64,000 nt of DNA from Candidatus Sericytochromatia bacterium (GCA_036675505.1 JAKFEW010000047.1:8821-72820); one strand, 5' to 3'; positions 3,143 through 38,296 are shown, counted from the stretch's first letter. The notes: generated by a model from the sequence alone, not told the origin. Numbers and translations: made by a program.

Positions 3143-3320
3143 CTGAGACCTCCATTTCATATGCCCGGGGTTCGGGCATAGGCCGGGCATAGAAGATAGG
3201 TATATATGCGCAGTTTTACGAAACCCTGTCAACCTAGATAATTACTGCATATGCACTTTCTAGCAACCCTTCCCGGCATAGACTGAACTATACGATTCTA
3301 GGTGCGCCCACACACTTTTA

Positions 3321-7455: not shown

Positions 7456-10200
7456 TCAGAGGCGTTCCTTCGGGATCCGCCGCACCTGGCGGCGCGGAAC
7501 GTCGCGCACGTAGAGGTTGCCCGCGGCATCGAAGCGCAGGTCCTCGGCCCAGCCGATCGAGTCGTCGAGCGACGTCCCGCCGAGCAGCGCGCTGCCCTGG
7601 CCGGCGACGACCTGGGGCTGGCCGTCGGCCGTGCGGCGGCGGATGTGGCGATCGCCGTAGTTGCCCAGCGTGTACGTCGGCGCGTCGCCCTCGTAGAGCC
7701 GCCCCTCGCCGTCCTTCGCCTCCGGCGCCAGCGCGTCGGCGGGCGCCTCGGTGATCGTGCCGTCGTCCGCGATGGCGAAACGGCCCGGCTTCGCGCCGAG
7801 GCCCTTGCGGGCCCGCATCCAGAGCGTGCCGTCGGGCGCGAAGGTCAGCTTCGCGATGTCGTCGAAGCCCGCCGAAGCGGGCACGAGGGTCTCGGCGACG
7901 GCCACGCCCGGCTTCCGGCGCACCACCTCGGCCGTCGTCCCGAAGCCATCGCTCACGGGCACATGCTTCGACGCGACGACCGTGCCGTCAGGCGCCGCGT
8001 CCCAGGCGTGCATCGCGATGTTCCAGGGATTGCCCCAGCTCTCGGCCTGCGTGAGCGCGACCTCCCAGGCGCCGGCGGCGTCCTGGCGCAGGATCAGCTC
8101 GCGGTTCGCGCCGAGCGCGCGGGCCGCGAGCTTCCCCGAGGCGAGCCGCCGCACGCCTGTGAACTGGAGCGCCTCGAGCGCCGCGGGCACGTAGGTCCCC
8201 TTCGCGGCCACCAGCTTCGGCGTGCCGCCCGGCGGGACCTCGAGCAGCGCGCCCGCATCGGCCAGGAAGAGCGTGCCGTCGGGGGCGACGTCCAGGCCCT
8301 TCGGGTAGAGCAGCGAGATCCGGCCATCCGCCGTGAAGCCCATGGGCAGCCCGTCGATGCCCGCCACGATGGTGGACGTTCCGCCGGGCGCTTCGAGGCG
8401 CCGGACGATCGCCGCGCCGAGGTTGTCGCCCATGTCGCAGTCGCTGATGTAGATCTTGCCGTCGTGGCCGGTCCGCGCCCAGGCCAGGCCGTGGCGGAGC
8501 GCCGCGCGGTCGGCGATCGCCTCGTCGCGGCCGTCCGGAGCCAGGCGGTGGATCTTCCCGTCGGCCGCGGCGACGTAGAAGAAGTTGCCGAATACGTCCA
8601 TCGCGGGGTCGTGGCGCGTGCCGTTGACGCTCGCCGCGAGCCGCGGGTCGTCCGCCGCCACCACGTCTTTCGGCGCTTCGGTCGTCGAGACCGCGACGAC
8701 GTGCTCGAACGACCGCGCGAGCCAGCGCGTGCGGCCGGGCAGTTCCACGAGGCCCATCGAGGCGCGCACGCCGGGCGCGTCGGCGAGCTTGGCCTTCGCG
8801 CCGCCGGGCGCCAGGGCCCAGATGGCATCGTCCGTCAGCGTCACGAGCGTGCCGTCCGAGCGCAGGTAGACGCGCGCGTAGAAGCTCTTGCCGAAGGCCG
8901 CCTCGAGCGCCGCGAGGGAGAAGAGCTCGCTGATCGTGCCGTCCGGCTCGAGCCGCCAGACGCCATGCTTGTCCTCCGCCACGATCGGCCGGCCGAGGTC
9001 GTCCACCTGCAGGCTCCAGACGTGTTGAAGCGCGATCTCGGCCGCCTTGCGTCCGCCGCGGGAGGCGGGCTCTTCGGTCGGCGCGGCGACGCCTGACCCT
9101 GCGACGGGCGCGAGCCTGCCGTCGGGCGAAACCCGCCAGATGAGGCCGTCGTCCGAGGCGTAGGTGTAGAGGCTGCCGTCGGCGGCGATGTCGGTCTCGA
9201 AGAGCCGCCGCATGTAGACCTCGGTGGCGGGCAGGCCGGCGCCGAGGTTCGAGACGCCCGCGGCGATCAGGATCTTCTTGACCGTCTCCATCTGGGCGTC
9301 GAAGGCCTGGTCCGTGCGGCGCAGGGCGGTGGCGGCCGCCACGAGCGCCGTGTTCTCCAGCGAGACGGGCGGCGGCGCGGCCGCGAGGGCCGACGCCGCG
9401 AGCGCGACGGTGTCCGCCTCGATGCGCGCCGGCAGCTTGTCGAGCGTGGCCTGGCGGTCCGGCTGCGTGCTCACGTACTGGTCGAGCACGTAGGTCGCGA
9501 CCACCGACGAGGCCAGGTCCACGTCCGCGGCGCGCACGCCGGTGGCGACGAGGCGCGAGAGCGCGCCGGTGCCGCCGGGCGGCGTGGCCCGCAGGATCAC
9601 ATGGCGGCCGGGCAGGGTCGCTGTGAACGCGAAGGTGCCGTCGGCGGCCGTGGTGGCTGTGAGCGGTGCGCCGTCGGGCCCGGTGACGGCCGCGCCCGCG
9701 GCGTCGAGCACCTCGACGCGGGCGCCCGGAATGAAGAACTGCTCGGGGGCGGCTTGCGCGAGGCGGTAGCCGCCGCCGTTGTTGCTCACCAGCCCGCCGC
9801 CGTTGTTGGCGATGATCCCGCCGCCGTTGTTCGCGATGATGCCGGCGCCGCGGTCGGAGATTAGGCCCGAGCCGTTGTTCGACAGCAACGGCGCGGGCGC
9901 CTTGACCTTGCCGGTCAGCGTGGCGGCCGCGAGATCGACCGCGGGCGGCGGGATCGACGCGCCCGCGATGATCGGGGCGGAGGCGCTCGCGAGGGGCGCC
10001 GATGAGGCGGGCGCCCCGGCCGACGGCGCGGTGACAGGGCCGAGCGGCGCCGGTGTGCTCGGTCTACTCGCTGTGCCCGGCGACGTTGCCGACGACGTCC
10101 GCGGCCGGGGCGCGGCGGTGGGCGACGCGGGTGGCGCTGTGCACCCGGCGACCAGCGCGATCGAGGCGGCCAACGGGAGCCAGCGGGTGAAAGCGAGCAT
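7456..10200 (-). CDS. Lipoprotein with NNGGG octapeptide repeats, a carboxypeptidase-regulatory-like domain and a C-terminal NHL/SMP-30-like beta-propeller
   Basis: Lipobox MLAFTRWLPLAASIALVAGC. Pro/Ser/Ala-rich linker. IIANNGGGIIANNGGGLVSNNGGG repeats. ARVEVLDAAGAAVTGPDGAPLTATTAADGTFAFT matches CarbopepD_reg. The C-terminus has NHL-like repeats (...LYVRD..., ...YISDCD...). I trimmed the start to M168 of the ORF-track frame. Confidence 0.75.
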   Translation of the reverse strand: MLAFTRWLPLAASIALVAGCTAPPASPTAAPRPRTSSATSPGTASRPSTPAPLGPVTAPSAGAPASSAPLASASAPIIAGASIPPPAVDLAAATLTGKVKAPAPLLSNNGSGLISDRGAGIIANNGGGIIANNGGGLVSNNGGGYRLAQAAPEQFFIPGARVEVLDAAGAAVTGPDGAPLTATTAADGTFAFTATLPGRHVILRATPPGGTGALSRLVATGVRAADVDLASSVVATYVLDQYVSTQPDRQATLDKLPARIEADTVALAASALAAAPPPVSLENTALVAAATALRRTDQAFDAQMETVKKILIAAGVSNLGAGLPATEVYMRRLFETDIAADGSLYTYASDDGLIWRVSPDGRLAPVAGSGVAAPTEEPASRGGRKAAEIALQHVWSLQVDDLGRPIVAEDKHGVWRLEPDGTISELFSLAALEAAFGKSFYARVYLRSDGTLVTLTDDAIWALAPGGAKAKLADAPGVRASMGLVELPGRTRWLARSFEHVVAVSTTEAPKDVVAADDPRLAASVNGTRHDPAMDVFGNFFYVAAADGKIHRLAPDGRDEAIADRAALRHGLAWARTGHDGKIYISDCDMGDNLGAAIVRRLEAPGGTSTIVAGIDGLPMGFTADGRISLLYPKGLDVAPDGTLFLADAGALLEVPPGGTPKLVAAKGTYVPAALEALQFTGVRRLASGKLAARALGANRELILRQDAAGAWEVALTQAESWGNPWNIAMHAWDAAPDGTVVASKHVPVSDGFGTTAEVVRRKPGVAVAETLVPASAGFDDIAKLTFAPDGTLWMRARKGLGAKPGRFAIADDGTITEAPADALAPEAKDGEGRLYEGDAPTYTLGNYGDRHIRRRTADGQPQVVAGQGSALLGGTSLDDSIGWAEDLRFDAAGNLYVRDVPRRQVRRIPKERL
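9771..9890. repeat. 24-bp tandem repeats (~5 units, 3 well conserved) encoding the NNGGG octapeptide repeats
   Basis: The units gccgccgttgttgctcaccagccc / gccgccgttgttggcgatgatccc / gccgccgttgttcgcgatgatgcc are read directly in the sequence. Confidence 0.7.
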
Positions 10201-13034: not shown

Positions 13035-13223
13035 TTAGCGCTCCGTCTCTTCTTCGGTGCGCGCGAGCAATTCTTCAAGCTTGGCGCGCACCTCGGGCGG
13101 CACGTTCGCGCGCTCTTCGGCCGTGAGGCTCTCCCAGGTCTTCACCATGAGCGCCGCGCTCGCTTCGACCAGCTCGGCCATCGCGTCCAGCGTCTTCTCG
13201 CGCATCGTCTCGTCCATCTTCAA
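13035..13223 (-). CDS. Small hypothetical protein (62 aa) translationally coupled to lspA
   Basis: High GC3. Its ATG overlaps the lspA stop (ATGA at 13220-13223). Confidence 0.5.
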   Translation of the reverse strand: MKMDETMREKTLDAMAELVEASAALMVKTWESLTAEERANVPPEVRAKLEELLARTEEETER

Positions 13224-13720
13224 GCCTCCACTCGCACGCGTTTCTCATACCCTTCGCGGAGCGCCTGCAGGCCGAGCAGGCCGACGCCCAGGTTGATCGC
13301 GATGTCGGCGACGTTGAAGATCGGGAAGACGTTGGCGCCATACCAGCGCAGGTCGAACATGTCGCGCACCTCGCCGACGAAGGCGCGGTCCAGGCCGTTG
13401 CCGAGCGCGCCGCCCAGCAGCAGGCCGAGCCCTATGACGATCAGCGGCGCGACCGGGCGCGTGGCATGGAGGTAGACGGCGATGCCGAGCGATACCGTCA
13501 GCGAGATGGCCGCCAGCACGCCGACGTGGCCGTAGAACAGGCTCCAGGCGGCGCCCTTGTTCAGCGCGGGCGTGAGGTGGAAGAAGCCGTCGATCAGCGG
13601 GCGCGAGTGGCCGACGGCGATCGCCGTGACGATCGCGAGCTTCGCGAGCTGGTCGAGCAGCAAGGCCGCGAGCGCGGTCAGGTAGAACGTGAGCGTCCGG
13701 TACAGGCGGTCGTGGGCCAC
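13220..13720 (-). CDS. lspA: Lipoprotein signal peptidase II
   Basis: The conserved SPase II blocks are present (...LTPALNKGAAWSLF..., ...FPIFNVADIAINLGVGLL...) and the protein has four TM segments. Confidence 0.9.
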   Translation of the reverse strand: MAHDRLYRTLTFYLTALAALLLDQLAKLAIVTAIAVGHSRPLIDGFFHLTPALNKGAAWSLFYGHVGVLAAISLTVSLGIAVYLHATRPVAPLIVIGLGLLLGGALGNGLDRAFVGEVRDMFDLRWYGANVFPIFNVADIAINLGVGLLGLQALREGYEKRVRVEA

Positions 13721-15719: not shown

Positions 15720-16223
15720 GTGCGACTGCTCAACGTCCGCGCGCGCCGACACGACCGACTCAAGCTCAGCGTTGGCTGGCCCTGGGACCAGCTCGGGCTG
15801 GGCGTGGCGCTCGTGCTGGTCGGGCTCGGGCTCATGTGGCCGGCGCTCGCCACCGATTTCGTCGCCTTCCTGAGCCGCCTGATCCTGGGGGGCGTCGTCG
15901 CCTGCGGCGGCATGCTGATGCTCTACTTCGCGGCGGAGGTGATGAGCGAGGCGGTGGTCTTCGACCGTCGCACGGGCGATTTCCTGACGATCGCGCTGGC
16001 GCGCGGCCGGCGGCGGGTGACGCGCCGGCCGATCCACATGCTGCGGCAGGTGACGGTCCGGCCGAACGGCCTTGCGCCCGGCGGCTACGGGCTGGTCTTC
16101 GAGTTCCGTGGCGAGCCCGCGATCACCTTCCCGCTCGACGCGAACGCGCAGGACCCGGGCGAGGGCGAGGCGATCGTGCGGCAGGTGTGGGCGTTCATCC
16201 AGCGAAAGGGTGCCGCGGGTTAG
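15720..16223 (+). CDS. Hypothetical membrane protein
   Basis: Two hydrophobic helices (LGVALVLVGLGLMWPALA, ILGGVVACGGMLMLYFAA). A GTG start abuts the prfC stop. Confidence 0.45.
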   Translation: MRLLNVRARRHDRLKLSVGWPWDQLGLGVALVLVGLGLMWPALATDFVAFLSRLILGGVVACGGMLMLYFAAEVMSEAVVFDRRTGDFLTIALARGRRRVTRRPIHMLRQVTVRPNGLAPGGYGLVFEFRGEPAITFPLDANAQDPGEGEAIVRQVWAFIQRKGAAG

Positions 16224-16858
16224 CCCACGTCGCCGAAGCGGCGGACCATCAGCTGGCCGAGCAGCCGGTCGAGCTCGGCGCGGTCGAGCGCGAAATCGCG
16301 GTTCAGGTCGCCCGCCTTCACCCAGGCCGCGATCGGCTCGCTGTCGAGGTAGAGCGACGCGCGCACGTGCCCGGGCAGCCAGCCCACGAACAGGCCGACC
16401 TCGTCGGCCGTCAGCTTCTCCGACGCATCCAGGTCCACCCGCAAGAACCCGTCCGCGATGTCCACCGCCGCGAACGGCGCGTCCTTGAAGCGCACCAGCG
16501 CGAAGGCCGTCCACTCGTTTTCGACGATGCGGCCGTCGCCGTTCTTGTCCGCCGTGGCGTGCGGCGTCGCGCCGCGCAGGATCGCGGCCTCGTCGTAGGG
16601 CCACTCGGCGTTGGTCACCGCGCCGTCGGCGTCCGCGTCGATCACGCGGAACATGAGCGCCGCGTTCGCGGGCAGGGGCGAGGCCGGCTTCTTCGTCACC
16701 AGCTTGCCGGCGTCGCGCTTGCCGCCGCCGGCCTTGCCGCCGCTGAGCTTGCCCGCGGCCGCGAAGCCGCCCGCCGCGCGGTCCACCGCCGAGAGCGGCG
16801 CGGCTCCGCAGGCGGTGAGCAAAAAGGTGAGGCCGAGGACGAGGCAGGTCTTGTGCAT
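16220..16858 (-). CDS. EF-hand calcium-binding lipoprotein
   Basis: Lipobox LLTACGAA. Two EF-hand loops (DADADGAVTNAEW, DKNGDGRIVENEW). Confidence 0.7.
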   Translation of the reverse strand: MHKTCLVLGLTFLLTACGAAPLSAVDRAAGGFAAAGKLSGGKAGGGKRDAGKLVTKKPASPLPANAALMFRVIDADADGAVTNAEWPYDEAAILRGATPHATADKNGDGRIVENEWTAFALVRFKDAPFAAVDIADGFLRVDLDASEKLTADEVGLFVGWLPGHVRASLYLDSEPIAAWVKAGDLNRDFALDRAELDRLLGQLMVRRFGDVG

Positions 16859-17021: not shown

Positions 17022-18329
17022 ATGCGGACGACGACGACGCGGCGCAAGGTGATCGGGATCGGCCTCACGGCCGCCCTCGCGGCCACGATGGCCGGCTGTG
17101 GCGCGGGACCCCGCATGGCCGGCAGCGTCGCCGCCGGCGACCTGGTGACCCAGGGCGCGCGCGATCCCGGCCGCGACGAGGGGCCCACCCAGTCCCTGTT
17201 GCAGCCGGCGCATGCGCTGCGCGGCCCGAACCCCGTGCGCAGCGGCAACTTCGCGCGCCTGCACGCCTCGGCGTCGCAGACCCTGCCCGCGCTGCGCGCG
17301 CTGATCGGCTCGGCGAAGCGGTCGCTCTGGTTCGAGACCTTCAACTTCGGCAACGATTCGATGGGCCAGCAGATTTACCCGCTGCTGATCGAGAAGGCCA
17401 GGGCCGGCGTCGAGGTGAAGGTGATCATGGACTACGTCGGCAGCCGCTTCCTGCCGAAGCACGGCGAGATGGTCCGCGCGATGCGTCAGGCCGGCGTCGA
17501 GGTGCGGATGTACAAGCCGCGCTGGATCGTCAAGGACGACAAGCAGCGCGGCATCAACATCCAGCACCGCAAGGTCTACCTCGCGGACGGCGAGCGCGGC
17601 CTCACCGGCGGCGTGAACCTCATGCAGCCCTTCGACACCCACACCGAAGACGTGCTGGTGGAGTACCGCGGCCCGATCATCCGCGACCTCGCGGCCGAGT
17701 ACGCGTTCGACTGGAAGGCGAGCGGCGGCGATACGCTGGCGCTGCCGCCCCAGGCGCCGCCGCAGCCGGATGGCGACGTGGAGGCCCGCGTGGTCGTGAC
17801 CAGCCCGGCCGAAGGCCGCTTCGAGGGCCGCGACGCCATCTACGCCGGCCTCGCCGCCGCCCGGCGCCAGATCGAGATCGCGAACCAGTATCTCTGGGAC
17901 GACGGCATCATCAAGCGCCTGCACGCGGCGCTCGCGCGCGGCGTGAAGGTGCGCGTGATCGTGCCCGGCGACGAGGACCACGGGCCGTTCAAGGCGCTGC
18001 ACGGCGAGGAGCTCAAGAAGCTCACTGAGCACGGCGCGGAGGCGCGGTTGTTCACCGGCACGCACGCCGAGGCGCACCTGCACACGAAGTTCTTCGGCGC
18101 GGACGACGCCTGGGTGGCGATCGGCTCGACCAACGGCGACACGCGCGCGCTGATGGACAACCAGGAGCTCGACACGATCATCACGGACCCCTGGCTCGCC
18201 AAGGATTTCCGCGACCGCATGTTCCAGCGCCTCTGGACGAGCGAGTCGAAGCCGTTCGTCTACAAGCCGGGCGGCCCGATGACGAAGCCGTTCCGGACCC
18301 TGCTCGAGATCATCGACTACTACCTGTAG
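17022..18329 (+). CDS. Phospholipase D-family (HKD) lipoprotein, paralog A
   Basis: Lipobox LAATMAGCGAG. Two HKD motifs (NIQHRKVYLADGERGLTGGVNL, HLHTKFFGADDAWVAIGSTNGDTRAL). Confidence 0.85.
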   Translation: MRTTTTRRKVIGIGLTAALAATMAGCGAGPRMAGSVAAGDLVTQGARDPGRDEGPTQSLLQPAHALRGPNPVRSGNFARLHASASQTLPALRALIGSAKRSLWFETFNFGNDSMGQQIYPLLIEKARAGVEVKVIMDYVGSRFLPKHGEMVRAMRQAGVEVRMYKPRWIVKDDKQRGINIQHRKVYLADGERGLTGGVNLMQPFDTHTEDVLVEYRGPIIRDLAAEYAFDWKASGGDTLALPPQAPPQPDGDVEARVVVTSPAEGRFEGRDAIYAGLAAARRQIEIANQYLWDDGIIKRLHAALARGVKVRVIVPGDEDHGPFKALHGEELKKLTEHGAEARLFTGTHAEAHLHTKFFGADDAWVAIGSTNGDTRALMDNQELDTIITDPWLAKDFRDRMFQRLWTSESKPFVYKPGGPMTKPFRTLLEIIDYYL

Positions 18330-18333
18330 CCAG

Positions 18334-19701
18334 TTAGAACAGGAAGTCCACCGACTCCAGGATACTGAACAGCCACTTCTTCCAGAAGGGCAGCGCCTCG
18401 ATGGTCGCGAGCGCGATCGGCTTCGCCGTCTTCCAGTCGCGCTCGAGCTGCTCGTCGATGAACTTCTTCGCCGCGGCCTTGTCGTAGATGATGCTGTTCA
18501 GCTCGTGGTTCTGCGACAGCGTGCGCGCGTCGCCGTTCGCCGAGCCGATCGAGAGCACCTTGCCGTCGACGACCATCGCCTTGAAGTGCGAGAAGCTCTC
18601 GACCTGCTCGTTGCCGACCTTGAAGTTGCTCAGGAAGCGGACCTCGATGCCGGCCGCGAGCAGCTGGCGGGCCGACTCCATGTTGAGGTTGCCGTACAGG
18701 AAGCCCGGGATCCCGCGCTCGCCCTTGCCGGGCATCATCACCTTGATCGAGAGCTTGGGGTTGCGCTTCTTGGCCTTGATCAGCTCGTCGATCATCGCGT
18801 CGTCCGAGAAGTACGGGTAAACGATGCGGATCTCCGAGGTGGCGTAGCGGATCAGCTTGAGCTGGGTCTCGCGCAGCTCGGTCTTCTTGGCGTGCGGGTC
18901 GGTCACGACCGACTGCACCCAGGCCGCGCCGCCCTTGGCGGGCTTCACTTGCGGGATGTGGGCGGGCACCTTGCCGCCGGCCTTGACCCAGTTCTTGAGG
19001 AACTCGCGCTGGATGCGGGCGGTCTCGTCGCCCTCGACCGTGTACATCAGGTCGTGCCAGGCCTTCTCGGTGCCCTGGCCGGGGTTGAAGAAGGTGGGCT
19101 TGAGGTACTCGTCGCCGATGTTGCGGCCGCCCGAGAGGAACTTCGTGCCGTCCTGGATGAAGAGCTTGCGGTGGGTGATCGGCGTGGCGCCCGTGGCGGT
19201 GGGGTCGACGCTGCCGCGGTTGAACTCGCGGACCTCGATCCCGTTGTCGCGCAGGAACTTCACGATCTCCGTGTCCTTGGTCGGGTTCGTGGCGTCGCGC
19301 AGGCCGGACCAGTCGATCAGGACCTTCATGTCGAAGGGCTCGCCCTTCTCGTCGGCGAGGCGCTTGCGGTCGATCAGGGCCTGGGCGATCTCGCGGCCGG
19401 ACTCGTCGTTGTGCCAGATGAAGATCTCGAGCCAGAAGGCTTCCTTCGAGGTCTTGATCGCGTCGAGGATGGCGAGGCGCGATTCGTCGGGCGAGACGTG
19501 CAGGGTGACCTTGTTGTGGAAGGTGGGCTGGTTGAGGGCCAGGCGCTCGACGCCGAGCGTGCCGTTGCGCGCGAGCACCCGGTTGGCCGTCACGTCCTTG
19601 GGGGGCGCGATCTTGGCCTCCAGCTTGGGCAGCCGGCGGTCCTGGAACTTCAAGATCTTTTCGCGAATGTTCGTCGGCATCGTCAGATCGGCTCTCAACA
19701 A
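18334..19701 (-). CDS. Phospholipase D-family (HKD) protein, divergent paralog B (no obvious signal peptide)
   Basis: Two HKD motifs (THRKLFIQDGTKFLSGGRNIGDEY, SHFKAMVVDGKVLSIGSANGDARTL). The protein is Lys-rich and its codon usage has lower GC than the flanking genes. Confidence 0.85.
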   Translation of the reverse strand: MLRADLTMPTNIREKILKFQDRRLPKLEAKIAPPKDVTANRVLARNGTLGVERLALNQPTFHNKVTLHVSPDESRLAILDAIKTSKEAFWLEIFIWHNDESGREIAQALIDRKRLADEKGEPFDMKVLIDWSGLRDATNPTKDTEIVKFLRDNGIEVREFNRGSVDPTATGATPITHRKLFIQDGTKFLSGGRNIGDEYLKPTFFNPGQGTEKAWHDLMYTVEGDETARIQREFLKNWVKAGGKVPAHIPQVKPAKGGAAWVQSVVTDPHAKKTELRETQLKLIRYATSEIRIVYPYFSDDAMIDELIKAKKRNPKLSIKVMMPGKGERGIPGFLYGNLNMESARQLLAAGIEVRFLSNFKVGNEQVESFSHFKAMVVDGKVLSIGSANGDARTLSQNHELNSIIYDKAAAKKFIDEQLERDWKTAKPIALATIEALPFWKKWLFSILESVDFLF

Positions 19702-19902
19702 GGCGGCAGGCGCCTGTGGATCTTGTCCCGCATGATCGGGCCGAATCTTCTTATGCTGGGGTTAACCGGGGGGCGTCGAAAGGTTAAGGAGTTGAGTTTT
19801 TCGATACAGCCTGTTGACGAATCGCCTAACAAGGTTTAGGATAGGTTAAGGGGATAACTTGGAGTTAACCACGGCGCACTGGCTCGGGAGGTTGGACGTT
19901 CG

Positions 19903-21201
19903 ATGAAGAGCGGAACCCGGATCGTCTTCACGGTTGCGATGGCAGCGCTGCTCGGCGCGTGCACCACCTTGTCGACTCCGCCCAGCGCCGGCACGAAGGC
20001 CGGCGCCCTCCAGGCCCTCGACGCCGTCGACGGCCCCGAGCCGCGCCTCGACCAGTACCCGACGCTGACGATCGACGTGCCGGCGCGGCCCACGCGCACC
20101 GCGCCGCGGCCCACCGGCGGCAACGTCGTCACGCCGTACGTGTCGCCCGCCGAGACCCTCCCGGCGCTGCTCGCGCTGATCGACGGCGCGAAGTCGTCGA
20201 TCTACCTCGAGACCTTCAACTTCGGCAGCCAGTCCTATGGCGAGCGGCTCGTGCCGCGCCTGATCGCGAAGGCCCGCGCGGGCGTCGAGGTGAAGGTGGT
20301 CATGGACTACTGCGGCAGCCGCTTCCTGCCGGGCCACAAGGAGATGCTGCGCGACCTGCGCGCGGCCGGCGTGGACGTGCGCCGCTACCTGCCGCGCGGG
20401 ATCCGCAAGGACGACCGGCAGATCGGCATCAACATCCAGCACCGCAAGGTCTACCTCGCGGACGGCGAGCGCGCGCTGGTGGGCGGCGTGAACCTCATGA
20501 AGGGGTTCGACACGATTCACCAGGACATCCTCGTGGCGTTCAGCGGGCCGGTGGTGGCGGACCTCTACAAGGAGTTCGCCCACGACTTCAAGGCCGCCGG
20601 CGGCAAAGCCGCGGTGCGCCTCCCGGCGCCGGTCTCGGCGGGCGGCTCGGCCACCACGCAGGTCTGCGTGACCAGCCCGGCCGAGGGCCGCTTCGAGGGC
20701 CGCGACATGATCTATGCGGGCATCGACGCCGCCAGCCGCTCGATCGTGATCGAGAACCAGTACCTCTGGGACGATCGCCTGATCGGGAAGCTCTACGCGG
20801 CGCTCGAGCGCGGCGTGCGGGTGCGCGTGATGGTGCCCGGCGAGGAAGCCAAAAAGGTGTGGCAGCACGTGCACGCCGAGGAGCTCAAGCGCCTCGTCGA
20901 TCGCGGCGCCGAAGCGCGCGTCTACCACGGCGATCCCTTCGAGGCCCACCTGCACGTGAAGTACTACTCGGTGGACGACCGCTGGACGGCGATCGGCTCG
21001 ACCAACGGCGACACGCGCGCGCTGCTCGACAACCAGGAAGTCCAGATCGCCGTCACCGACCCCGGATTCGCGGTGGAGCTGCGTCAGCGGCTCTTCGAGC
21101 GCGACTGGAACGAGCGCTCGCAGCCGTTCGTTTACAAGCCGGGGACCTTCATCAGCCGCCCCTTCCGGAGCCTGATGGAGATCATCGACTACTACTTGTA
21201 G
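19903..21201 (+). CDS. Phospholipase D-family (HKD) lipoprotein, paralog C (close paralog of A)
   Basis: Lipobox LLGACTT. HKD motifs (NIQHRKVYLADGERALVGGVNL, HLHVKYYSVDDRWTAIGSTNGDTRAL). It is collinear with paralog A over its whole length. Confidence 0.85.
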   Translation: MKSGTRIVFTVAMAALLGACTTLSTPPSAGTKAGALQALDAVDGPEPRLDQYPTLTIDVPARPTRTAPRPTGGNVVTPYVSPAETLPALLALIDGAKSSIYLETFNFGSQSYGERLVPRLIAKARAGVEVKVVMDYCGSRFLPGHKEMLRDLRAAGVDVRRYLPRGIRKDDRQIGINIQHRKVYLADGERALVGGVNLMKGFDTIHQDILVAFSGPVVADLYKEFAHDFKAAGGKAAVRLPAPVSAGGSATTQVCVTSPAEGRFEGRDMIYAGIDAASRSIVIENQYLWDDRLIGKLYAALERGVRVRVMVPGEEAKKVWQHVHAEELKRLVDRGAEARVYHGDPFEAHLHVKYYSVDDRWTAIGSTNGDTRALLDNQEVQIAVTDPGFAVELRQRLFERDWNERSQPFVYKPGTFISRPFRSLMEIIDYYL

Positions 21202-21301
21202 CTTTTAGAGCGGCGGGCGCTCGAGAATCAACGGTGAGAGAGAGGGCAACGGGTCGTCGGGGAAATCCCGATGGCCCGTTCGCCTTTGCAGGGCCAGGCG
21301 C

Positions 21302-21670
21302 TCAGGCCACGACCGGCGAGAGGTGCTTGCCGATCACGCGGAAGAGGCGGTCATCGGCGAGCGGGTTGGCGATGAAGTCCAGCGCGCCGGCCCGCTTGGC
21401 CTCGAGCACGGGCGTGTGGTGGTGCACAGGGCCGGTCAGGATCACGCCGGCGCAGGGATCGGCCACGCGCAGCGCCTTGAGCGCCGTCACGCCGTCCATG
21501 TCGGGCAGGTGGTGGTGCATGACCACCACGTCGGGGTCGGTCTGGCCGTAGATGGCGATCGCCGCCATCCCCGAGCCGACCTCGACCACCTGGTAGCCGT
21601 GCGCCTCGAGGGCGCGCGCCAACAGGCGGCGTTTGAAGACCCCAGGCTCGACGAGCAGCACGGTCCGCAT
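21302..21670 (-). CDS. Single-domain response-regulator receiver (CheY-like)
   Basis: MRTVLLVEPGVFKRRLLARALEAHGYQVVEVGSGMAAIAIY...DVVVMHHHLPDMDGVTALKAL has the receiver-domain fold. There is no output domain. Confidence 0.7.
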   Translation of the reverse strand: MRTVLLVEPGVFKRRLLARALEAHGYQVVEVGSGMAAIAIYGQTDPDVVVMHHHLPDMDGVTALKALRVADPCAGVILTGPVHHHTPVLEAKRAGALDFIANPLADDRLFRVIGKHLSPVVA

Positions 21671-21812
21671 GGCGCACCTCCAGGGCCCCAGCCTAAGCGG
21701 GATCCGGGAGGACGTCCTCGGCCGGCGCTACGACGGTCTTCGTGCGTTTCGGCAAAGGAGCGCCGCCCCCGCACGAACATGGGCGGAGGCGGCACGGGAA
21801 GCGCGTTGCGAG

Positions 21813-22826
21813 CTACGCGGCGGTAGCGGTGGCCTCGTCGTCGTCGTCGACGCCCGTCGCGTCATCGTCGTCGTCGGCCTCGTCGTCTTCACCGTCATCG
21901 TACGGATCGGCCGAGGGCAAAGGCGCGGGGTTGTGGGCCGGGGCGATCTTCGAGACCTCGACGTTGACCTTGCCGTCCGCGTCGCGGGTGCCGGTGATCT
22001 CGGTGCGGTTGCCGTCGCGGTGGGTGATGTAGCCGTCGATCTTCTCGGTGCCGTCCGCATTGACCGTCTTGGTCCACTCGGCGTACTCCTGGCGGCCGTC
22101 CTTGTAGATCACGGTGCGCTTGGTGACGACCTGGTAGGCGCCGTTGTCGCCGACCAGCGTGCGGATGCGCTCGAGGTCGATGCGCAGGTCCTTGTTGTTC
22201 TGGCCGGTCTGGTGGACCGACAGCGTCTGGGTCGTGCCCTCGTCGTCGACGACGCGGCGGGTCTCGACTTCCCAGGTGCCCTTGTTGGTGGAGGTCCAGG
22301 TCGTGACGATTTCCTTGCCGCCGCCGCCGAGGTCGTTGATCGTGGTGACGGGCGCCGTCCGGTTCTTGCGGATGCTGTCGATCTCGCCTTCGTGGAGCTC
22401 GAACGCGAGCTCGCGCTTGTGCTTGAGGGCGGCCTTCACTTCACGCTTGAGCTTGAAGCGCTGCCAGGCGCGCTTGAGCTTGTCCTTGAGGTCCTGGAAC
22501 CAGCCCTGCAGCTGGTAGGTCGGGCCGTCGTCGGCGAGCAGCTCGAGCGCTTCGAGCTCGGCGTCGGCCGTGATCACGTCGGCGGTGACTTCCTGCGCGG
22601 CGACGGCGAGCGCGGCGGGGGCGGCGCCGGCCGTCACCACGACGGTCGGGGCGGGACCCTTGAAGCCGGGGACCGTGCGAATCAGCGGGGCGGCCGCGGG
22701 CGCCAGCGGAGCCGGGGCGACGGGCACCGAGACCGACGTCGCGAGACGGGCCGAGGGCGCGGACGTGCAGCCTGCCAGCAGGGCGGCGGCGAGGGTCACG
22801 AGGATCGCGGTACGGCGAGCGGCCAT
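21813..22826 (-). CDS. Hypothetical lipoprotein with an acidic C-terminal tail
   Basis: Lipobox LLAGCTSA. GAAGGAG RBS. The C-terminus is a D/E-rich tract. Confidence 0.55.
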   Translation of the reverse strand: MAARRTAILVTLAAALLAGCTSAPSARLATSVSVPVAPAPLAPAAAPLIRTVPGFKGPAPTVVVTAGAAPAALAVAAQEVTADVITADAELEALELLADDGPTYQLQGWFQDLKDKLKRAWQRFKLKREVKAALKHKRELAFELHEGEIDSIRKNRTAPVTTINDLGGGGKEIVTTWTSTNKGTWEVETRRVVDDEGTTQTLSVHQTGQNNKDLRIDLERIRTLVGDNGAYQVVTKRTVIYKDGRQEYAEWTKTVNADGTEKIDGYITHRDGNRTEITGTRDADGKVNVEVSKIAPAHNPAPLPSADPYDDGEDDEADDDDDATGVDDDDEATATAA

Positions 22827-22991
22827 CGGTCTATCTCCTTCGGTGGGGGCTTTGTACTTGAATGAGCTGTTAGCTCTGCACGGGATCTTTGTCGCCAGGC
22901 TTTTGGTGATCCTCGATAAAGACGAGGTAAAGGCGTGTTGAAAACTGGCGAAAGAAGTTTTCCCAGAGTGAAGGTGCTCCGGGAAACCGCG

Positions 22992-24167
22992 CTACTTGCC
23001 CTTGCCCTTGCCCTTGTCGCCCGACGCGTCGCCCGCAGGGCCATCGTCGTCCCCGTCGTCGTCGTCGCCGTCGTCGTCGCCCGAGCCGCTGCCGTGCCCA
23101 GCGCCGCCCGACGGGGTGTCACCCGCCGGCGCGTTGCCGGCACCCGCGCCACTGCTGCCACCGCCTGCGGCGCCGCTGCCACTCTGGTCGCCGCCGCCGT
23201 GTTCGGTCGGGGCGGCCGGCGTGGCGGGCTGCGCCGGTTGCGCGGCGTTGCCCGGCTCAGCAGGCTGCGCGGGCGTCGCGGGTTGGGCCGGCGTCGCGCC
23301 GTTGTCGCGCGGGGCTTCCTGCGGCGCCGCGGCGGCCGCCTTCTTCGCTTCATCGGCAGCCGCCTGCTTCTCCACTTCGGCGGCCTGCTTCGCCTCGGCG
23401 ACGGCGGCCAGGGCGGCCTGGGCGGCTTCGGGCCGCTTCTCGAGTGCCTTCTCGAGCGCCTTGTCGGCCGAGCCGCCCGGCTTGAGATCGATCTGGATCT
23501 CGCCGGCGTCGGAGGCGGCCTTTACGGCGTCTTCGAGGGCCTTCAGCTTGTCGGGCTTGATCTGGGCGAGCTCCTTGGGATCCTTGAGCTTCGCGCGCAC
23601 GCCGTCGGAGACCGCCGTCGAGACCGGGTCGACGCGCAGCTCTTCGGCCGCGTTGGCCTTCATCAGGCGGCCGAGCCGGAAGCCCTTGCCGCGAATCTCG
23701 ATGAAGGCGACGGTTCCTTCGGGCACGCCCGCGAGCGAGAATTTGCCCAGGGTGTCGGTCTTGGCCGGCGCCACGCCGGGGAAGGGCCGGCCGTCTGCGG
23801 CCAAAAGCACGACCTCGGCATCCGGCACAGGCGCGAGCGCCTCGGCGGCGAGCAGGCCGAATCGCGGGACGCTCAGCGAGCCGCCGCCATTCGCGACGAT
23901 CGAGCTGCCGCCGTTCGTGACGATCGAGCCGCCGCCATTCGCGACGATCGAGCCGCCGCCGTTCGCAATCACCGAGCCGCCGCCGTTTGCGATGACGCTC
24001 GCGGGGGCCTGGGCCACGCCGCCAATCATGATCTTGGGGGCGATCCGGGCCGCGGGGCCACTGACGCGGTTTTCTACGAGGCCGCCGTCGGGTTTGGTCA
24101 GGCTCGGCGGCTGACACGCGGTCAGCACCAGGGCGAGCGGAAGAGCCAACGGCCAGGCACGCAACAT
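22992..24167 (-). CDS. Lipoprotein with ANGGGS octapeptide repeats and a carboxypeptidase-regulatory-like domain (paralog of 7456-10200 and 36629-38296)
   Basis: Lipobox LALVLTAC. VIANGGGSVIANGGGSIVANGGGSIVTNGGSSIVANGGGS repeats. AEVVLLAADGRPFPGVAPAKTDTLGKFSLAGVPEGTVAFIEIRGKG matches CarbopepD_reg. The C-terminus has an Ala/Lys/Glu coiled-coil-like region and a Gly/Asp-rich tail. I took the start at the second ATG (24167), which has a GAAAGGGGG RBS. Confidence 0.7.
   Translation of the reverse strand: MLRAWPLALPLALVLTACQPPSLTKPDGGLVENRVSGPAARIAPKIMIGGVAQAPASVIANGGGSVIANGGGSIVANGGGSIVTNGGSSIVANGGGSLSVPRFGLLAAEALAPVPDAEVVLLAADGRPFPGVAPAKTDTLGKFSLAGVPEGTVAFIEIRGKGFRLGRLMKANAAEELRVDPVSTAVSDGVRAKLKDPKELAQIKPDKLKALEDAVKAASDAGEIQIDLKPGGSADKALEKALEKRPEAAQAALAAVAEAKQAAEVEKQAAADEAKKAAAAAPQEAPRDNGATPAQPATPAQPAEPGNAAQPAQPATPAAPTEHGGGDQSGSGAAGGGSSGAGAGNAPAGDTPSGGAGHGSGSGDDDGDDDDGDDDGPAGDASGDKGKGKGK
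23877..23996. repeat. 24-bp tandem repeat x5 encoding the ANGGGS repeats
   Basis: The units gagccgccgccattcgcgacgatc / gagctgccgccgttcgtgacgatc / gagccgccgccattcgcgacgatc / gagccgccgccgttcgcaatcacc / gagccgccgccgtttgcgatgacg are read directly in the sequence. Confidence 0.8.
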
Positions 24168-24252
24168 CAGGATCCCCCTTTCCATACGGAAGTCCTATAC
24201 CCGAACCCTTGCCTGGTTGACACAGCGGGGCGCGGTCCGTCCGGTCATCGCC

Positions 24253-25248
24253 TCAATGCCCGTGGTGGTGGTCGTGGTGATGATCGTGGCCGTCGTCGTG
24301 GTGGTGGTGGTCGTGCCCGTGATGGGGTGGCTGCACCATGCCGAGGTTGCAGGCCGGCGAATCCGGCGAGCAGTGCTCCGCCTCGGCCTGGATCGTGGTG
24401 TGGATGATGCCGTACTTGTCGGCGAGCAGCTGGGTGCAGGCGGCGACGACGCCGACGCTGCGCGGCACGAGTTCGTCCTCGATGAGGACGTGGCACGAGA
24501 GGCTCGGCATGTTGCGGGCGATGCTCCAGACGTGCAGGTCGTGGACCTCGCGAACGCCCGCGATCGCCTTCAAGTCGCCCACCAGGCCCTCGACGTCGAG
24601 GTCCGGCGGCGCGCCTTCCATGAGGATCGCGATGCTCTCATCCACGACCTGCCAGGCCCCGTAGGCGATGAAGACGGCGATCGCCACCGACAGCAGCGGG
24701 TCGACCGCGTGCCAGCCCGTCACAGCGATCACGATCGCGCCGACGATCACGCCGCCGGACGCCGCCGCGTCGCCCATCACGTGCAGGAAAGCGCTGCGCA
24801 CGTTGAGGTTGTGCTCGGACTCGCCCTTGAGGCCCAGGCCGATCGCGAGGTTGATCACCAGGCCGATCGCCGCGGCGGCGAGCATCGTCATCGGCTGCAC
24901 GGCGACCGGTGCGCCCAGGCGCCCGTACGCCTCGTAGCCGATCCACAAGGCGATCAAGATCAGGCTCACGGCGTTCGCGAGCGCGGCGAGGATGCCGGTG
25001 CGGTGGTAACCGAAGGTGCGCTTCCGATCCGCCGGGCGCGTGGCTTGCCAGGTGGCGTACCACGAGAGGCCGAGGGCCGCGATGTCGGTGACGACATGGC
25101 CGGCGTCGGCGAGCAGGGCCAGGGACTTCGAGAGCCAGCCACCCACCAGCAGCACGGCGAGAACGCCGAAAGACAGGAAGAACGCGATCGCGAGCTTCCG
25201 CCCCGTCAGGTGGGCGTGGTGGTGATGGTGGTGGGCGTGGCCGATCAC
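24253..25248 (-). CDS. czcD: Cation diffusion facilitator (CDF) family metal exporter, CzcD-like, with His-rich termini
   Basis: The TM core follows the CDF signature (FFLSFGVLAVLLVGGWLSKSLALLADAGHVVTDIAAL...HVMGDAAASGGVIVGAIVI). Both termini are His-rich (HAHHHHHHAH at the N-terminus, HHGHDHHHHDDGHDHHHDHHHGH at the C-terminus). The GTG start overlaps the stop of the upstream small ORF (GTGA). Confidence 0.85.
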   Translation of the reverse strand: MIGHAHHHHHHAHLTGRKLAIAFFLSFGVLAVLLVGGWLSKSLALLADAGHVVTDIAALGLSWYATWQATRPADRKRTFGYHRTGILAALANAVSLILIALWIGYEAYGRLGAPVAVQPMTMLAAAAIGLVINLAIGLGLKGESEHNLNVRSAFLHVMGDAAASGGVIVGAIVIAVTGWHAVDPLLSVAIAVFIAYGAWQVVDESIAILMEGAPPDLDVEGLVGDLKAIAGVREVHDLHVWSIARNMPSLSCHVLIEDELVPRSVGVVAACTQLLADKYGIIHTTIQAEAEHCSPDSPACNLGMVQPPHHGHDHHHHDDGHDHHHDHHHGH

Positions 25249-25448
25249 GCTTCCGGGGTGATCTTCGCGATGCGCTCGCGCACGCTCTGGATCGTGCCCA
25301 GCGGCGCCGGCGTAGCGGGCACGTCGGCCGTAGGCGCCTGCGCCGCGGGCTCGATCGGGCCCAGCAAGGGCCCGGTCGCCACCTTCTTGGCGCGGCGGGC
25401 GACCGCGCGCGAGAGCTTGAGCTGATCGTTTGGCTGCTTGTCGGCCAT
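25245..25448 (-). CDS. Small hypothetical protein (67 aa) translationally coupled to the CDF exporter
   Basis: GAAGGAGG lies 6 nt before the ATG. High GC3. Its stop overlaps the CDF start. Confidence 0.55.
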   Translation of the reverse strand: MADKQPNDQLKLSRAVARRAKKVATGPLLGPIEPAAQAPTADVPATPAPLGTIQSVRERIAKITPEA

Positions 25449-25882
25449 GCGGGCCTCCTTCGGGCGGGCAGGGATCGCCCTCAGTATACCCCGCGTCGTG
25501 GCCGCCGGTGACGCGGCTCACGGCCCGCTAGGCGGCTTCCGGCGGACCATACCGGTGGGGAAAGCCCCCGCGATCCGGGTATACGGATCACGACGCCGAA
25601 GCCCCCAGCGGGAAAAGGCGCCGAGCGGGGGGCCGACCACCCGAGCGGGTGGAAGGTCCCCAGGCGAGGACCCCTCCGTATGATGTCTCTGGAAGCCCTG
25701 GCGATGGTACTGTGCGCCGCGATCGCGGTTTACCTGGCCTTCACCAAATGCCCCTGTAGCGTCGTTTCCGACGACTTGCAAGCGAGCTACGATCCATCTG
25801 AGCAGCCGTCCCGCTAGAGCGGGTCTGGACGCGCCCCGCGCGCTCATGTTAGGATGACCAGACTCCCGGCGATGCCGGGCGC

Positions 25883-25954
25883 GCCCCGATGGTCTAGTGG
25901 TTAGGACACCACCCTTTCAAGGTGGTAACACGGGTTCAATTCCCGTTCGGGGTA
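25883..25954 (+). tRNA. tRNA-Glu (anticodon TTC)
   Basis: Cloverleaf folded by hand. The acceptor pairs gccccga with tcggggt (G1-U72 wobble). The D-arm is gtct/agtggttaggac. The anticodon stem is ccacc/ggtgg and the loop is cTTTCaa. The T-arm is acggg/ttcaatt/cccgt. The discriminator is A and there is no encoded CCA. It resembles the E. coli tRNA-Glu architecture. Confidence 0.85.
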
Positions 25955-25966
25955 CTCGCTTTCTGG

Positions 25967-36628: not shown

Positions 36629-38296
36629 GTGTCGCGTCCGATCGCCCCTGGAATCGCTCTGGTGCTCGCGCTCTCGGGCCCGCTCGGCGGCTGCGCCGGC
36701 GGCGGCCAGCCGCCCGCGCCGGCGCCGCGAGCCAGCGGGAAGCCGGCGATCGCGAGGCCCGGGGCCTCCCTGGTCGAGCTGGAAGGGCGCGTGCTCGCCA
36801 CGGCCACGCTGATTTCGGACAAGGGCGGCGCCATCCTGTCGAACAACGGCGCGGGCATCGTCTCCAACAACGGCGGCGCGCTCACGGCCAAGGTGAAGCT
36901 GGCGCTGGCGCAGGCCGCGGAGCCGTGGCAGCTGGTCGAGAAGGCCGAGGTCGAGCTGGTGGACGCGGCCGACCGGCCCGCGCCGGGCGTCGCGCCCGTG
37001 CGCACGGACGGCACCGGACGCTACCGCCTCCAGGCCCCGCCCGGCACCTGGTTGGTGCGCGTGAAGGCCAACGGCGTGCGGCTCAGCGCCTTCGTCCGCA
37101 TCGGCGCGGCGGCCACGAAGGCGGACGTCTCGCCGGCCACGACCGTGGTCGCCGAGTACGTCCGCGAGCAAGCGAAGGCCAGCCAGGCCGCGTTGGAATC
37201 GGTCGCCGAGGCCTCGGTCGCGGCGCTGGTCGCGCGCGTGGAGCCCGTGCTGCGGTCCGGCGCGGTGGCGCTGGAGCTGGCGTCCCCGGCGGCGGCGGTG
37301 AAGGTGCTGGAGCGTGCCGCGGCGGCCGAGCCGCTGGTGAAGACCCAGGCCGCGGCGGTCGCGGCCGAGCTGGGCGTCGCCTTGGCCGGCGCCGGCGCGC
37401 GGCCCTCGACGGCGCCGACCAGCGTGCCCGGGGAACCCTCGCCCAAGCCGGCCTCGACCCCCACGCCGGGCGCGACCCCCACCCCCGACCCGCTGCTCGG
37501 CACCATCATCGCCGGGCAGGCCCAGCTGGATCCGAAGCCGGCGTCAGCGGCGGACGCGGCCGACGCCGTCGGCGTGGACCTCGGCGTGCCGGACAGCCTG
37601 GCCGTCGCCGCCGACGGCACCGTGTTCTTCACCAGCCCGGCCGGCACGCTGCGGGCCATCACCCCCGCCGGGGCCTACGTCGCGGCGCCGCTGGCCGCGC
37701 CGATCGGCTCCCGGCTCGCCACCTTGAACGGCGACGCGCTGTTCGTCGACGCCGCCCGCACGGGCATCGTCGCCGTCGCATCCGGCGCCGGCCCGTTGCA
37801 GGTCCGCCGGCTCGTGGCGGTGAAGGGGGCGCCGCTGCCCGCCGGGGCGCCGCTCGCGGCGGCGGGGGACGGCACCTTCCTCGTCGGGCACACGCGCATC
37901 GGCGTCGACGGCGTCCAGGCGGATCTCCTGGCCACCTCCGCGAGCCTGGCGGGCAAGGCGGAGCCCCAGGCGGGCACGTTGCCGTCGGCCCTGGCGTACG
38001 GCGTGGGCGGCCGGCTCTTCGCCGGGTACGGCGCGAAGGACGCCAGCGGGAACGTCTACGAGGTGCTGTCCGGCGGGCAGATCCTCGCCACCTACGGGTC
38101 CTCGACGACGTGGACCCTCGCCACGGACCGGGCGGGGCGGCTGGTCATGTCGCAGGGGGGCCGGGTCTCGCGCCGCGACGGGCCGGGGGCGAGCGTCGAG
38201 CTCGCGCGGGGGCTGGCTTGCGGGGCGATCGCCTTCGCGCCCGACGGTACGCTCTACTACGTCGACGTCGGCGCCATCCGGCGGCTCAAGCCGTAG
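36629..38296 (+). CDS. Lipoprotein with SNNGAG repeats, a carboxypeptidase-regulatory-like domain and a C-terminal beta-propeller-like region (third paralog)
   Basis: GAGGAGG RBS before the GTG at 36629. Lipobox LALSGPLGGCAG. ILSNNGAGIVSNNGGAL repeats. AEVELVDAADRPAPGVAPVRTDGTGRYRLQAPPGTWLVRVKANG matches CarbopepD_reg. Confidence 0.7.
   Translation: MSRPIAPGIALVLALSGPLGGCAGGGQPPAPAPRASGKPAIARPGASLVELEGRVLATATLISDKGGAILSNNGAGIVSNNGGALTAKVKLALAQAAEPWQLVEKAEVELVDAADRPAPGVAPVRTDGTGRYRLQAPPGTWLVRVKANGVRLSAFVRIGAAATKADVSPATTVVAEYVREQAKASQAALESVAEASVAALVARVEPVLRSGAVALELASPAAAVKVLERAAAAEPLVKTQAAAVAAELGVALAGAGARPSTAPTSVPGEPSPKPASTPTPGATPTPDPLLGTIIAGQAQLDPKPASAADAADAVGVDLGVPDSLAVAADGTVFFTSPAGTLRAITPAGAYVAAPLAAPIGSRLATLNGDALFVDAARTGIVAVASGAGPLQVRRLVAVKGAPLPAGAPLAAAGDGTFLVGHTRIGVDGVQADLLATSASLAGKAEPQAGTLPSALAYGVGGRLFAGYGAKDASGNVYEVLSGGQILATYGSSTTWTLATDRAGRLVMSQGGRVSRRDGPGASVELARGLACGAIAFAPDGTLYYVDVGAIRRLKP

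Follow-up and report, generated by a model that had tools for sequence, protein, structure and literature searches.

A lipoprotein gene with an in-frame 24-bp tandem array in a Candidatus Sericytochromatia genome

Does a well-preserved tandem repeat inside a lipoprotein gene mark a surface protein of shifting length, or does it reflect constraint on the protein that it encodes? The question is raised by a gene, here called the target, on the minus strand at positions 22992–24167 of a 64,000-nucleotide stretch from Candidatus Sericytochromatia bacterium (GCA_036675505.1, JAKFEW010000047.1:8821-72820). We refer to the whole stretch, which is 69% guanine plus cytosine (GC), as the window. An initial annotation, made from the sequence alone, had picked out the five 24-bp units of this gene as the best place in the window to look for repeat-number polymorphism. 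We found no evidence that the target locus is a variable surface switch; the gene encodes an ordinary but uncharacterised repeat lipoprotein. In the account that we consider probable, the target is a lipid-anchored envelope protein of a high-GC relative of the Sericytochromatia or unclassified Cyanobacteriota, its octapeptide (octad) array is a variable-length insertion in a β-sandwich, and this array was recently duplicated or homogenised.

The tandem array at the DNA level

The array, in window coordinates, is as follows.

23877–23996, minus strand: five in-frame 24-bp tandem units, encoding the octapeptides VIANGGGS, VIANGGGS, IVANGGGS, IVTNGGSS and IVANGGGS (residues 58–97)

Tandem Repeats Finder delimited it as 23877–23992, with a period of 24, 4.8 copies, 85% matches and a score of 169, the top of the 30 rows returned for the window. 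Its description as the best-preserved repeat in the window therefore holds, and the positions initially given for the gene and the array are correct. The units had also been called exact, with two of them identical, and had been translated as VIANGGGS five times over. Units 3 and 5 are indeed identical, the only such pair, but pairs of units match at 18–24 of 24 bases (0–6 mismatches; mean 84%), and the encoded octapeptides differ as listed above.

We compared this similarity with a codon null model, in which the five peptides were held fixed and their codons were redrawn from the usage of 28 window genes. Codon bias in these genes is extreme, with GGC supplying 77% of Gly, AAC 96% of Asn, and ATC 94% of Ile codons. 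The observed mean unit identity was 0.84, against 0.73 ± 0.03 expected under codon redraw (P about 0.002), and an identical unit pair arose in 2.4% of redraws. Units 3 and 5 also have in common an AAT codon, which makes up 4% of the Asn codons in window genes. The arrays of two paralogues within the window and of two same-locus genes of Cyanobacteria bacterium RYN_339 are less homogeneous (0.61–0.67 versus 0.84 in the target). Because DNA identity exceeds the codon-bias expectation, the rare AAT is common to units 3 and 5, and the paralogous and orthologous arrays are less homogeneous, recent local duplication or conversion within the target array is likely.

The window, which belongs to a metagenome-assembled genome (MAG), and a Logan contig (SRR17380409) matching window positions 20995–25918 at 100% identity both show five units, and the Logan contig crosses the array unbroken; the two assemblies probably derive from the same reads. 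A search of 185,579 species genomes and of Joint Genome Institute (JGI) metagenomes found no sister strain and no close relative of the target, its sole other copy being the identical Logan contig.

These results bear on the alternative that the target is a contingency locus, whose near-identical 24-bp units would slip or recombine often and thereby let a surface-exposed lipoprotein vary in size or antigenicity. The first rank of the array among the tandem repeats of the window speaks for this alternative, as do its DNA identity above the codon-bias expectation and its one identical unit pair. As a run of units, however, the array is short and imperfect (only five units, with the mismatches given above), both assemblies show the same unit count, and surface exposure of the target is putative. 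In a contingency locus slippage would shift the reading frame or promoter spacing; here the unit spans eight codons inside the coding sequence, so slippage would alter loop length by 8 residues per unit, and on/off switching is impossible with a unit divisible by three. Shorter alternative candidates for slippage are two (GAC)n tracts, namely an interrupted trinucleotide tract at 23044–23079, which encodes a poly-Asp stretch of the target, and a similar tract in the neighbouring gene at 21835–21901.

The octapeptide family and its predicted fold

An exhaustive HMMER search with target residues 1–262 against 1.84 billion representatives of 50%-identity clusters returned 278 clusters at E ≤ 1e-3, 40 of them at E ≤ 1e-10, mostly unnamed proteins. 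Among the matches spanning the module, none is more than 45% identical to the target, and the few members with names belong to Candidatus Sericytochromatia and to Cyanobacteria bacterium RYN_339 (MAGs of Sericytochromatia or unclassified Cyanobacteriota). A lipobox-like motif lies within the first 50 residues in 103 of 150 family representatives. Relatives share an N-terminal order of lipobox, conserved LxGxxxAPAxL strand, octad array, β-sandwich and helical region, while their C-termini vary and include disordered tails, NHL/SMP-30 propellers and pentapeptide repeats.

The octads follow the consensus [ILV][VI][AS][NQA][GND]GG[NSG], with a G-G-N turn and two hydrophobic positions strongly conserved. 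Family proteins carry 0–26 units (mode 4) without preference for multiples of 2 or 3, and units that are 100% identical are frequent in other members. Between homologues drawn from separate 50%-identity clusters the unit number is kept (P0002/P0011, 3/3; P0010/P0019, 4/4; P0005/P0013, 4/4), which argues against fast repeat turnover; P0002 and P0011, the one pair measured, are 57% identical over the module. The target has five units, versus 3–4 in its nearest relatives and the RYN_339 same-locus genes. Such variation, across the family and between positional counterparts, would suit a contingency locus, but unit numbers are kept between homologues, and a mode of four with often identical units points to structural constraint and not to free variation; we regard a contingency locus as unlikely. 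The octad array is an ancient family hallmark, constrained at the protein level, and the 24-bp repeats are its coding sequence rather than a young DNA element. What had initially been read as recent expansion or contraction thus survives as recent duplication or conversion among the units, but not as evidence that the repeat itself is young.

The initial annotation had rightly placed the target in a paralogous family, of which two further members lie in the window.

36629–38296, plus strand: paralogue of 555 aa, identical to P0036, with 3 octads in the shared N-terminal module and a longer C-terminal region after it
7456–10200, minus strand: distant paralogue of about 914 aa, with a lipobox, 5 LISNNGxG-type octads, the module and a long C-terminal region

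The first is 33% identical to the target over 200 aa (E 4e-19; profile E 3.6e-44), and the second matches the family profile at E 3e-8. The long C-terminal region of the distant paralogue has no Pfam match; its homologue P0032 gives sub-threshold matches to SGL and teneurin-NHL. Long octad arrays also occur in quite different proteins (P0086, P0119, P0097, P0035 and P0150), among them one array that follows an Rhs-associated core, one at the C-terminus of a Planctomycetota FG-GAP/DUF11 protein and one inside a 1203-aa protein without a Pfam match. Neither Pfam nor NCBIfam has a match for long octad arrays, no solved structure covers the repeat, the searchable literature held nothing relevant on octapeptide strings or Sericytochromatia lipoproteins, and a scan of 2.9 million viral contigs for the octapeptide motif found none.

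Around the array, the target is made up of the following parts, some of which draw on models based on AlphaFold2, with confidence given as the predicted local distance difference test (pLDDT).

24114–24167, minus strand: lipoprotein signal peptide MLRAWPLALPLALVLTA with lipobox Cys18 (codon 24114–24116), read from the sequence
24003–24035, minus strand: pre-repeat β-strand KIMIGGVAQAP (residues 45–55), putative strand A of a split transthyretin-like sandwich
23631–23837, minus strand: rest of the transthyretin-like (CarboxypepD_reg-like) β-sandwich (residues 111–179)
23427–23630, minus strand: helical subdomain (residues 180–247), conserved in the family (VxPATTxVTEHLR region in relatives) and without a Pfam model
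23325–23426, minus strand: Ala/Glu/Lys-rich helix (residues 248–281), read from the sequence; helix 246–279 in a single-sequence AlphaFold2 model
22995–23324, minus strand: disordered low-complexity tail, read from the sequence; pLDDT below 50 in the single-sequence model

The PS51257-type PROSITE rule for lipoproteins calls for a basic residue among the first 7, an uncharged hydrophobic stretch and [LVI][ASTVI][GAS]-C with the Cys at 15–35. The N-terminus of the target, MLRAWPLALPLALVLTAC, combines a basic n-region with a hydrophobic core of 12 residues, and its lipobox reads L-T-A-C (Cys18); it fits the rule through R3, uncharged positions 8–13 and L15-T16-A17-C18. The rule also fits the product of an upstream start at 24185, with the Cys then at position 24. 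A gene for signal peptidase II lies in the window itself (13220–13720, minus strand; PF01252, E 1e-33), and the lipoprotein-processing enzyme is thus present. The lipoprotein assignment was sound in that this is a lipoprotein-type precursor and not a cytoplasmic protein, and lipidation at Cys18 is predicted from the motif. Besides the signal peptidase gene, the window encodes four or more lipobox proteins and an EF-hand protein that looks secreted (16220–16858, minus strand).

The C-terminal features noted initially, an Ala/Lys/Glu coiled-coil-like segment (248–281), a GDDDGDDDDGDDDG stretch and a GDKGKGKGK end, are all present. The tail runs from a PAQPAx hexapeptide-like repeat (282–322) through a Gly/Ser-rich part (323–362) and GDDDGDDDDGDDDG (363–376) to the Gly/Lys tip (377–391), and the last 137 residues of the protein contain 2 hydrophobic residues in total. 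Gly/Lys tips also end the nearest relatives (P0002, P0003, P0007 and P0016). Matches to TolA, Vip and TraD were rejected as composition-driven and far under cutoff; that to TolA (NF007065, 11.5 bits against a cutoff of 213) came from the Ala/Glu/Lys-rich helix alone. An NCBIfam scan of the target gave nothing meaningful.

AlphaFold2 run on a 19-sequence alignment gave a model with a mean pLDDT of 82 and a predicted template-modelling score (pTM) of 0.75; the separate single-sequence model was poor (pLDDT 50). In the alignment-based model, the sandwich (111–179) and the helical subdomain (here 180–254) are mostly above 90, with the helices at 90–96, and the pre-repeat strand (45–55) reaches 86–95. 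Residues 64–104, which cover the linker that follows the octads and most of the array itself, fall below 50. The single-sequence model places a short strand in each octad unit, likewise at pLDDT below 50.

Pfam matched the target to CarboxypepD_reg (PF13620) alone and below threshold, at 20.7–23.0 bits, or 25.2 bits without the octads, against a gathering cutoff of 32.3. Across the family, 22 of 24 members match PF13620 at E ≤ 0.01, and in-silico deletion of the octads raised the score in all 5 of the proteins tested. The window paralogue at 36629–38296 scored 27.9 bits with its octads and 34.8 bits without them, which passes the gathering cutoff, and its match then started at profile position 2; deletion extended the match to profile positions 2–3 in 2 of the 5 proteins, the target not being among them. 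Since the model has a confident pre-repeat strand and PF13620 scores gain on octad deletion, these results indicate a split sandwich in which the octad array would be inserted between strands A and B. In the model, the target has a prealbumin-like β-sandwich fold; a Foldseek search of the module against the PDB gave weak sandwich matches at best and none over the whole module.

Taken together, the probable account would run as follows. Signal peptidase II would cleave before Cys18 to give a mature protein of four parts: a short linker; a transthyretin-like sandwich, with the Gly/Asn-rich octad array as a variable-length insertion at the A–B corner that parts the first strand from the rest; a compact helical subdomain; and a 137-residue disordered tail whose end is formed by a poly-Asp stretch and a Lys/Gly tip. 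Local duplication or conversion would recently have added or homogenised at least one unit in the array, which now has five, compared with 3–4 in the nearest relatives. Any later change in unit number would preserve the frame, each unit gained or lost altering the length of the loop by 8 residues. The variable loop and the charged disordered tail may extend from a compact sandwich–helix head, and a structural or adhesive role in the envelope, rather than an enzymatic one, would be most likely from this architecture.

Several points weigh against this account. There is no characterised homologue, and the function is drawn from architecture alone. The taxonomic assignment consists of a few named MAG proteins and one marker, the window RF3, whose best match is in a Sericytochromatia MAG (59% identity). 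The placement of the octads in a loop, which the model suggests, draws on one AlphaFold2 model and modest gains in hidden Markov model (HMM) score, and the PF13620 score of the target itself stays under the gathering cutoff. The structure of the array is also ambiguous, as its low pLDDT may mean disorder, a fold that depends on oligomerisation, or misalignment of repeats in the input.

This ambiguity leads to a second alternative, in which the octads form a defined β-structure upon oligomerisation or ligand binding and act in trimerisation, adhesion or ion binding as the protein's functional core. Such a structure might be an intertwined triple-stranded β-helix, like the VxGxxxxx helix of phage T4 gp5, or a β-roll with 16 residues per turn. 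A strict 8-residue period with its conserved turn and hydrophobic positions would fit, and so would the occurrence of octads in long arrays (10–26 units) at other positions in unrelated proteins, including the C-terminal region of an Rhs-core protein and the Planctomycetota FG-GAP/DUF11 protein. A long array also gives weak phmmer matches to the phage central-spike β-helices 8kea_D and 6p20_A (E 0.06–0.5), but matches in the PDB are non-significant and composition-biased, and they include a lectin. The short strand per unit in the single-sequence model is in keeping with a β-structure, yet pLDDT over the octads is below 50 in both AlphaFold2 models, an outcome to be expected of monomer prediction if the true form is an intertwined trimer. 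Against the idea stand the unit counts, in which multiples of 2 or 3 are not favoured, and the absence of the motif from the 2.9 million viral contigs. Moreover, insertion between two strands requires ends that lie close together, which a straight helix does not supply. We therefore judge an array with a fold of its own to be fairly unlikely, and retain the loop insertion in a split sandwich. In a more general form, the octapeptide [ILV][VI][AS]x[GND]GG[NS] may represent an undescribed class of structural repeat with a defined fold, possibly oligomeric or ligand-induced, that different lineages have reused as a modular block. This idea is doubtful; if it were true, unit number would set a functional length.

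The gene call and its surroundings

The target gene and its flanking signals are listed below.

22992–24167, minus strand: target lipoprotein coding sequence, 391 aa, with its stop codon at 22992–22994 and, in the open reading frame (ORF) list, an ATG at 24167
24174–24180, minus strand: Shine–Dalgarno-like AAGGGGG, 6 nt upstream of the ATG at 24167; putative, read from the sequence
22959–22986, minus strand: terminator-like hairpin directly 3′ of the target stop, from a consensus scan that found 4 sites against 2.8 expected, hence weak alone

A second in-frame ATG upstream, at 24185, would give a product of 397 aa, which is the call on the Logan contig, where the exact target sequence recurs. 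We favour the start at 24167, since the AAGGGGG motif lies 6 nt upstream of it.

The target is a genuine gene that encodes a predicted membrane-anchored lipoprotein. An artefact, either a shadow ORF of a high-GC genome or a repeat collapsed in assembly, might be suspected because other frames and the opposite strand also contain long ORFs overlapping it, which any sequence of 69% GC would show. Nevertheless, the GC content of the target frame varies by codon position as in a real gene, reaching 0.88 at third positions (GC3), and the profile of the family module matches the target at E 4e-47. Hundreds of homologues share its architecture, the predicted fold is confident, and a second assembler recovered the identical sequence. 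Collapse of the array is unlikely because its 120 bp are about the length of an ordinary short read. An artefact is thus scarcely credible.

The genes next to the target, and the order of this locus in two related sequences, are as follows.

24253–25248, minus strand: cation diffusion facilitator (CDF; Cation_efflux and ZT_dimer), His-rich, the upstream neighbour of the target, 85 bp away
21813–22826, minus strand: lipoX, a lipoprotein with an acidic tail and no Pfam match, the downstream neighbour, better conserved than the target and unrelated to it
Window: CDF, target, lipoX, response regulator (21302–21670), with phospholipase-D-like genes beyond
RYN_339 (contig L083): CDF (70% identity), two tandem family members (31% for the family member), lipoX (53%), response regulator, two TerD genes, phospholipase-D-like genes
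L088 (a metagenome contig): CDF (77% identity) followed directly by lipoX (70%), with the target and the response regulator absent

Identity between the target and its positional counterpart in RYN_339 is 31%, versus 70% and 53% for the flanking genes; the target diverges much faster than its neighbours. Exposed proteins often do so, and this divergence would again suit a contingency locus, which the unit counts and the in-frame unit speak against. In L088 the spacer aligns with the window region upstream of lipoX. The two loci (L088 823–975 and window 22827–24252) differ by the presence or absence of about 1.4 kb, the target, and about 0.5 kb, the response regulator, and are otherwise syntenic.

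The proximity of the CDF gene suggests a further reading, in which the target works with the adjacent CDF and its poly-Asp tail binds or buffers exported divalent cations in the envelope. The target lies 85 bp downstream of the His-rich CDF gene on the same strand, RYN_339 repeats the order of CDF, family member(s), lipoX and response regulator, and the tail of lipoX is acidic like that of the target. However, the tails of the RYN_339 counterparts are Gly/Asn-rich or Pro/Thr-rich instead of acidic, and other family members sit in unrelated gene contexts. L088, which is closer to the window than RYN_339 is, has CDF and lipoX without the target and the response regulator. We therefore regard the target as accessory at this locus. 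An obligate link to the transporter was rejected, and a working partnership with the CDF is very improbable.

Further observations on the neighbours are set down here. The CDF protein itself is very His-rich at its ends (C-terminus HHGHDHHHHDDGHDHHHDHHHGH). The long GTG-started ORF at 24253–25521 is probably over-extended at its 5′ end, because the CDF call on the Logan contig is 331 aa. Orthologues of lipoX occur in RYN_339 (L083 7175–8128; 53% identical) and L088 (940–1932; 70% identical); lipoX always follows the cation-efflux gene region, and two conserved blocks in its upstream spacer, GTCTTTATCGAGG and GAGCTAACAGCTC, may be regulatory. The lipoprotein gene at 21813–22826 was also considered as a paralogue of the target and was rejected, having no similarity to it. 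The second tandem family member of RYN_339 (L083 4542–5864) has a long GNAGNx/GNGN low-complexity tail ending in GNGNGKNK, reminiscent of the Gly/Lys tips that the target and its nearest relatives carry. At window positions 17022–21201 three phospholipase-D-like (PLDc_2) paralogues lie side by side, their strands alternating, and phospholipase-D-like genes flank the locus in RYN_339 and L088 too. A comparison anchored on RF3 did not find the target family in the flanks of the Sericytochromatia best match. The tyrosine integrase encoded at 1901–3232 (minus strand), which is of phage type and carries an Arm DNA-binding domain, lies far from the only tRNA of the window (tRNA-Glu, 25883–25955).

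Significance and relation to known systems

The target is a new, uncharacterised member of a broad class, the repeat-bearing envelope lipoproteins with an Ig-like sandwich, and its importance is modest. Its analysis supplies a domain map for a large lipoprotein family, its members almost all labelled 'hypothetical', (about 278 clusters) in little-studied non-photosynthetic relatives of cyanobacteria: a lipobox, a transthyretin-like sandwich predicted to be split by octads, a helical subdomain and a variable C-terminal part (disordered tail, NHL/SMP-30 propeller or pentapeptide repeats). It also flags an octapeptide repeat that lies outside the curated libraries (Pfam and NCBIfam) and the searchable literature, an absence that is the only mildly novel element. 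For repeat-based hunts for variable surface genes the locus counsels caution, as a neat DNA tandem repeat at high GC can mostly reflect protein constraint and codon bias. The lineage is uncultured; were polymorphism to be seen at the level of reads, the locus would offer an entry point to envelope variation within it.

The target can be set beside several known systems. SdrD B-domains and CnaB-type pilin domains are found in LPXTG-anchored proteins of Gram-positive bacteria and have Ca2+ sites or isopeptide bonds; no such feature is evident in the target. Like the β-roll of RTX or haemolysin-type nonapeptides (GGxGxDxUx), the octads are short Gly-rich tandem repeats in secreted or envelope proteins; a calcium-binding β-roll of this type was rejected because the period is 8 and not 9, Asp is not conserved, and Pfam gives no HemolysinCabind match. 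With the triple-stranded β-helix (VxGxxxxx) in the central spike of phage T4 gp5 and phiKZ gp164, the octads share an eight-residue period, a Gly and Asn/Asp kink and alternating small and hydrophobic residues. Unlike in those proteins, the arrays of the target family are short and would lie in a domain loop, a trimer of the target is hypothetical, and the phmmer E-values (0.06–0.5) are non-significant.

Related in fold are the carboxypeptidase regulatory-like, transthyretin-like proteins of PF13620 (PDB 3e8v; carboxypeptidase D domains 1qmu and 5aq0). From these the target family differs in that its first strand is set apart by an octad array of 24–200 residues; the sandwich of the target is fused to a family-specific helical subdomain, has no enzyme domain and scores under the gathering cutoff. 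Comparable in their repeats are the Vlp proteins of Mycoplasma hyorhinis, size-variable lipoproteins whose C-terminal repeats are demonstrably polymorphic. Like Vlp, the target is of the lipobox-anchored type and has in-frame tandem coding repeats, whose gain or loss would change its length without destroying the protein. Unlike Vlp, to which it bears no sequence relationship, it carries a repeat that appears to be internal to a folded domain and is conserved across a deep family.

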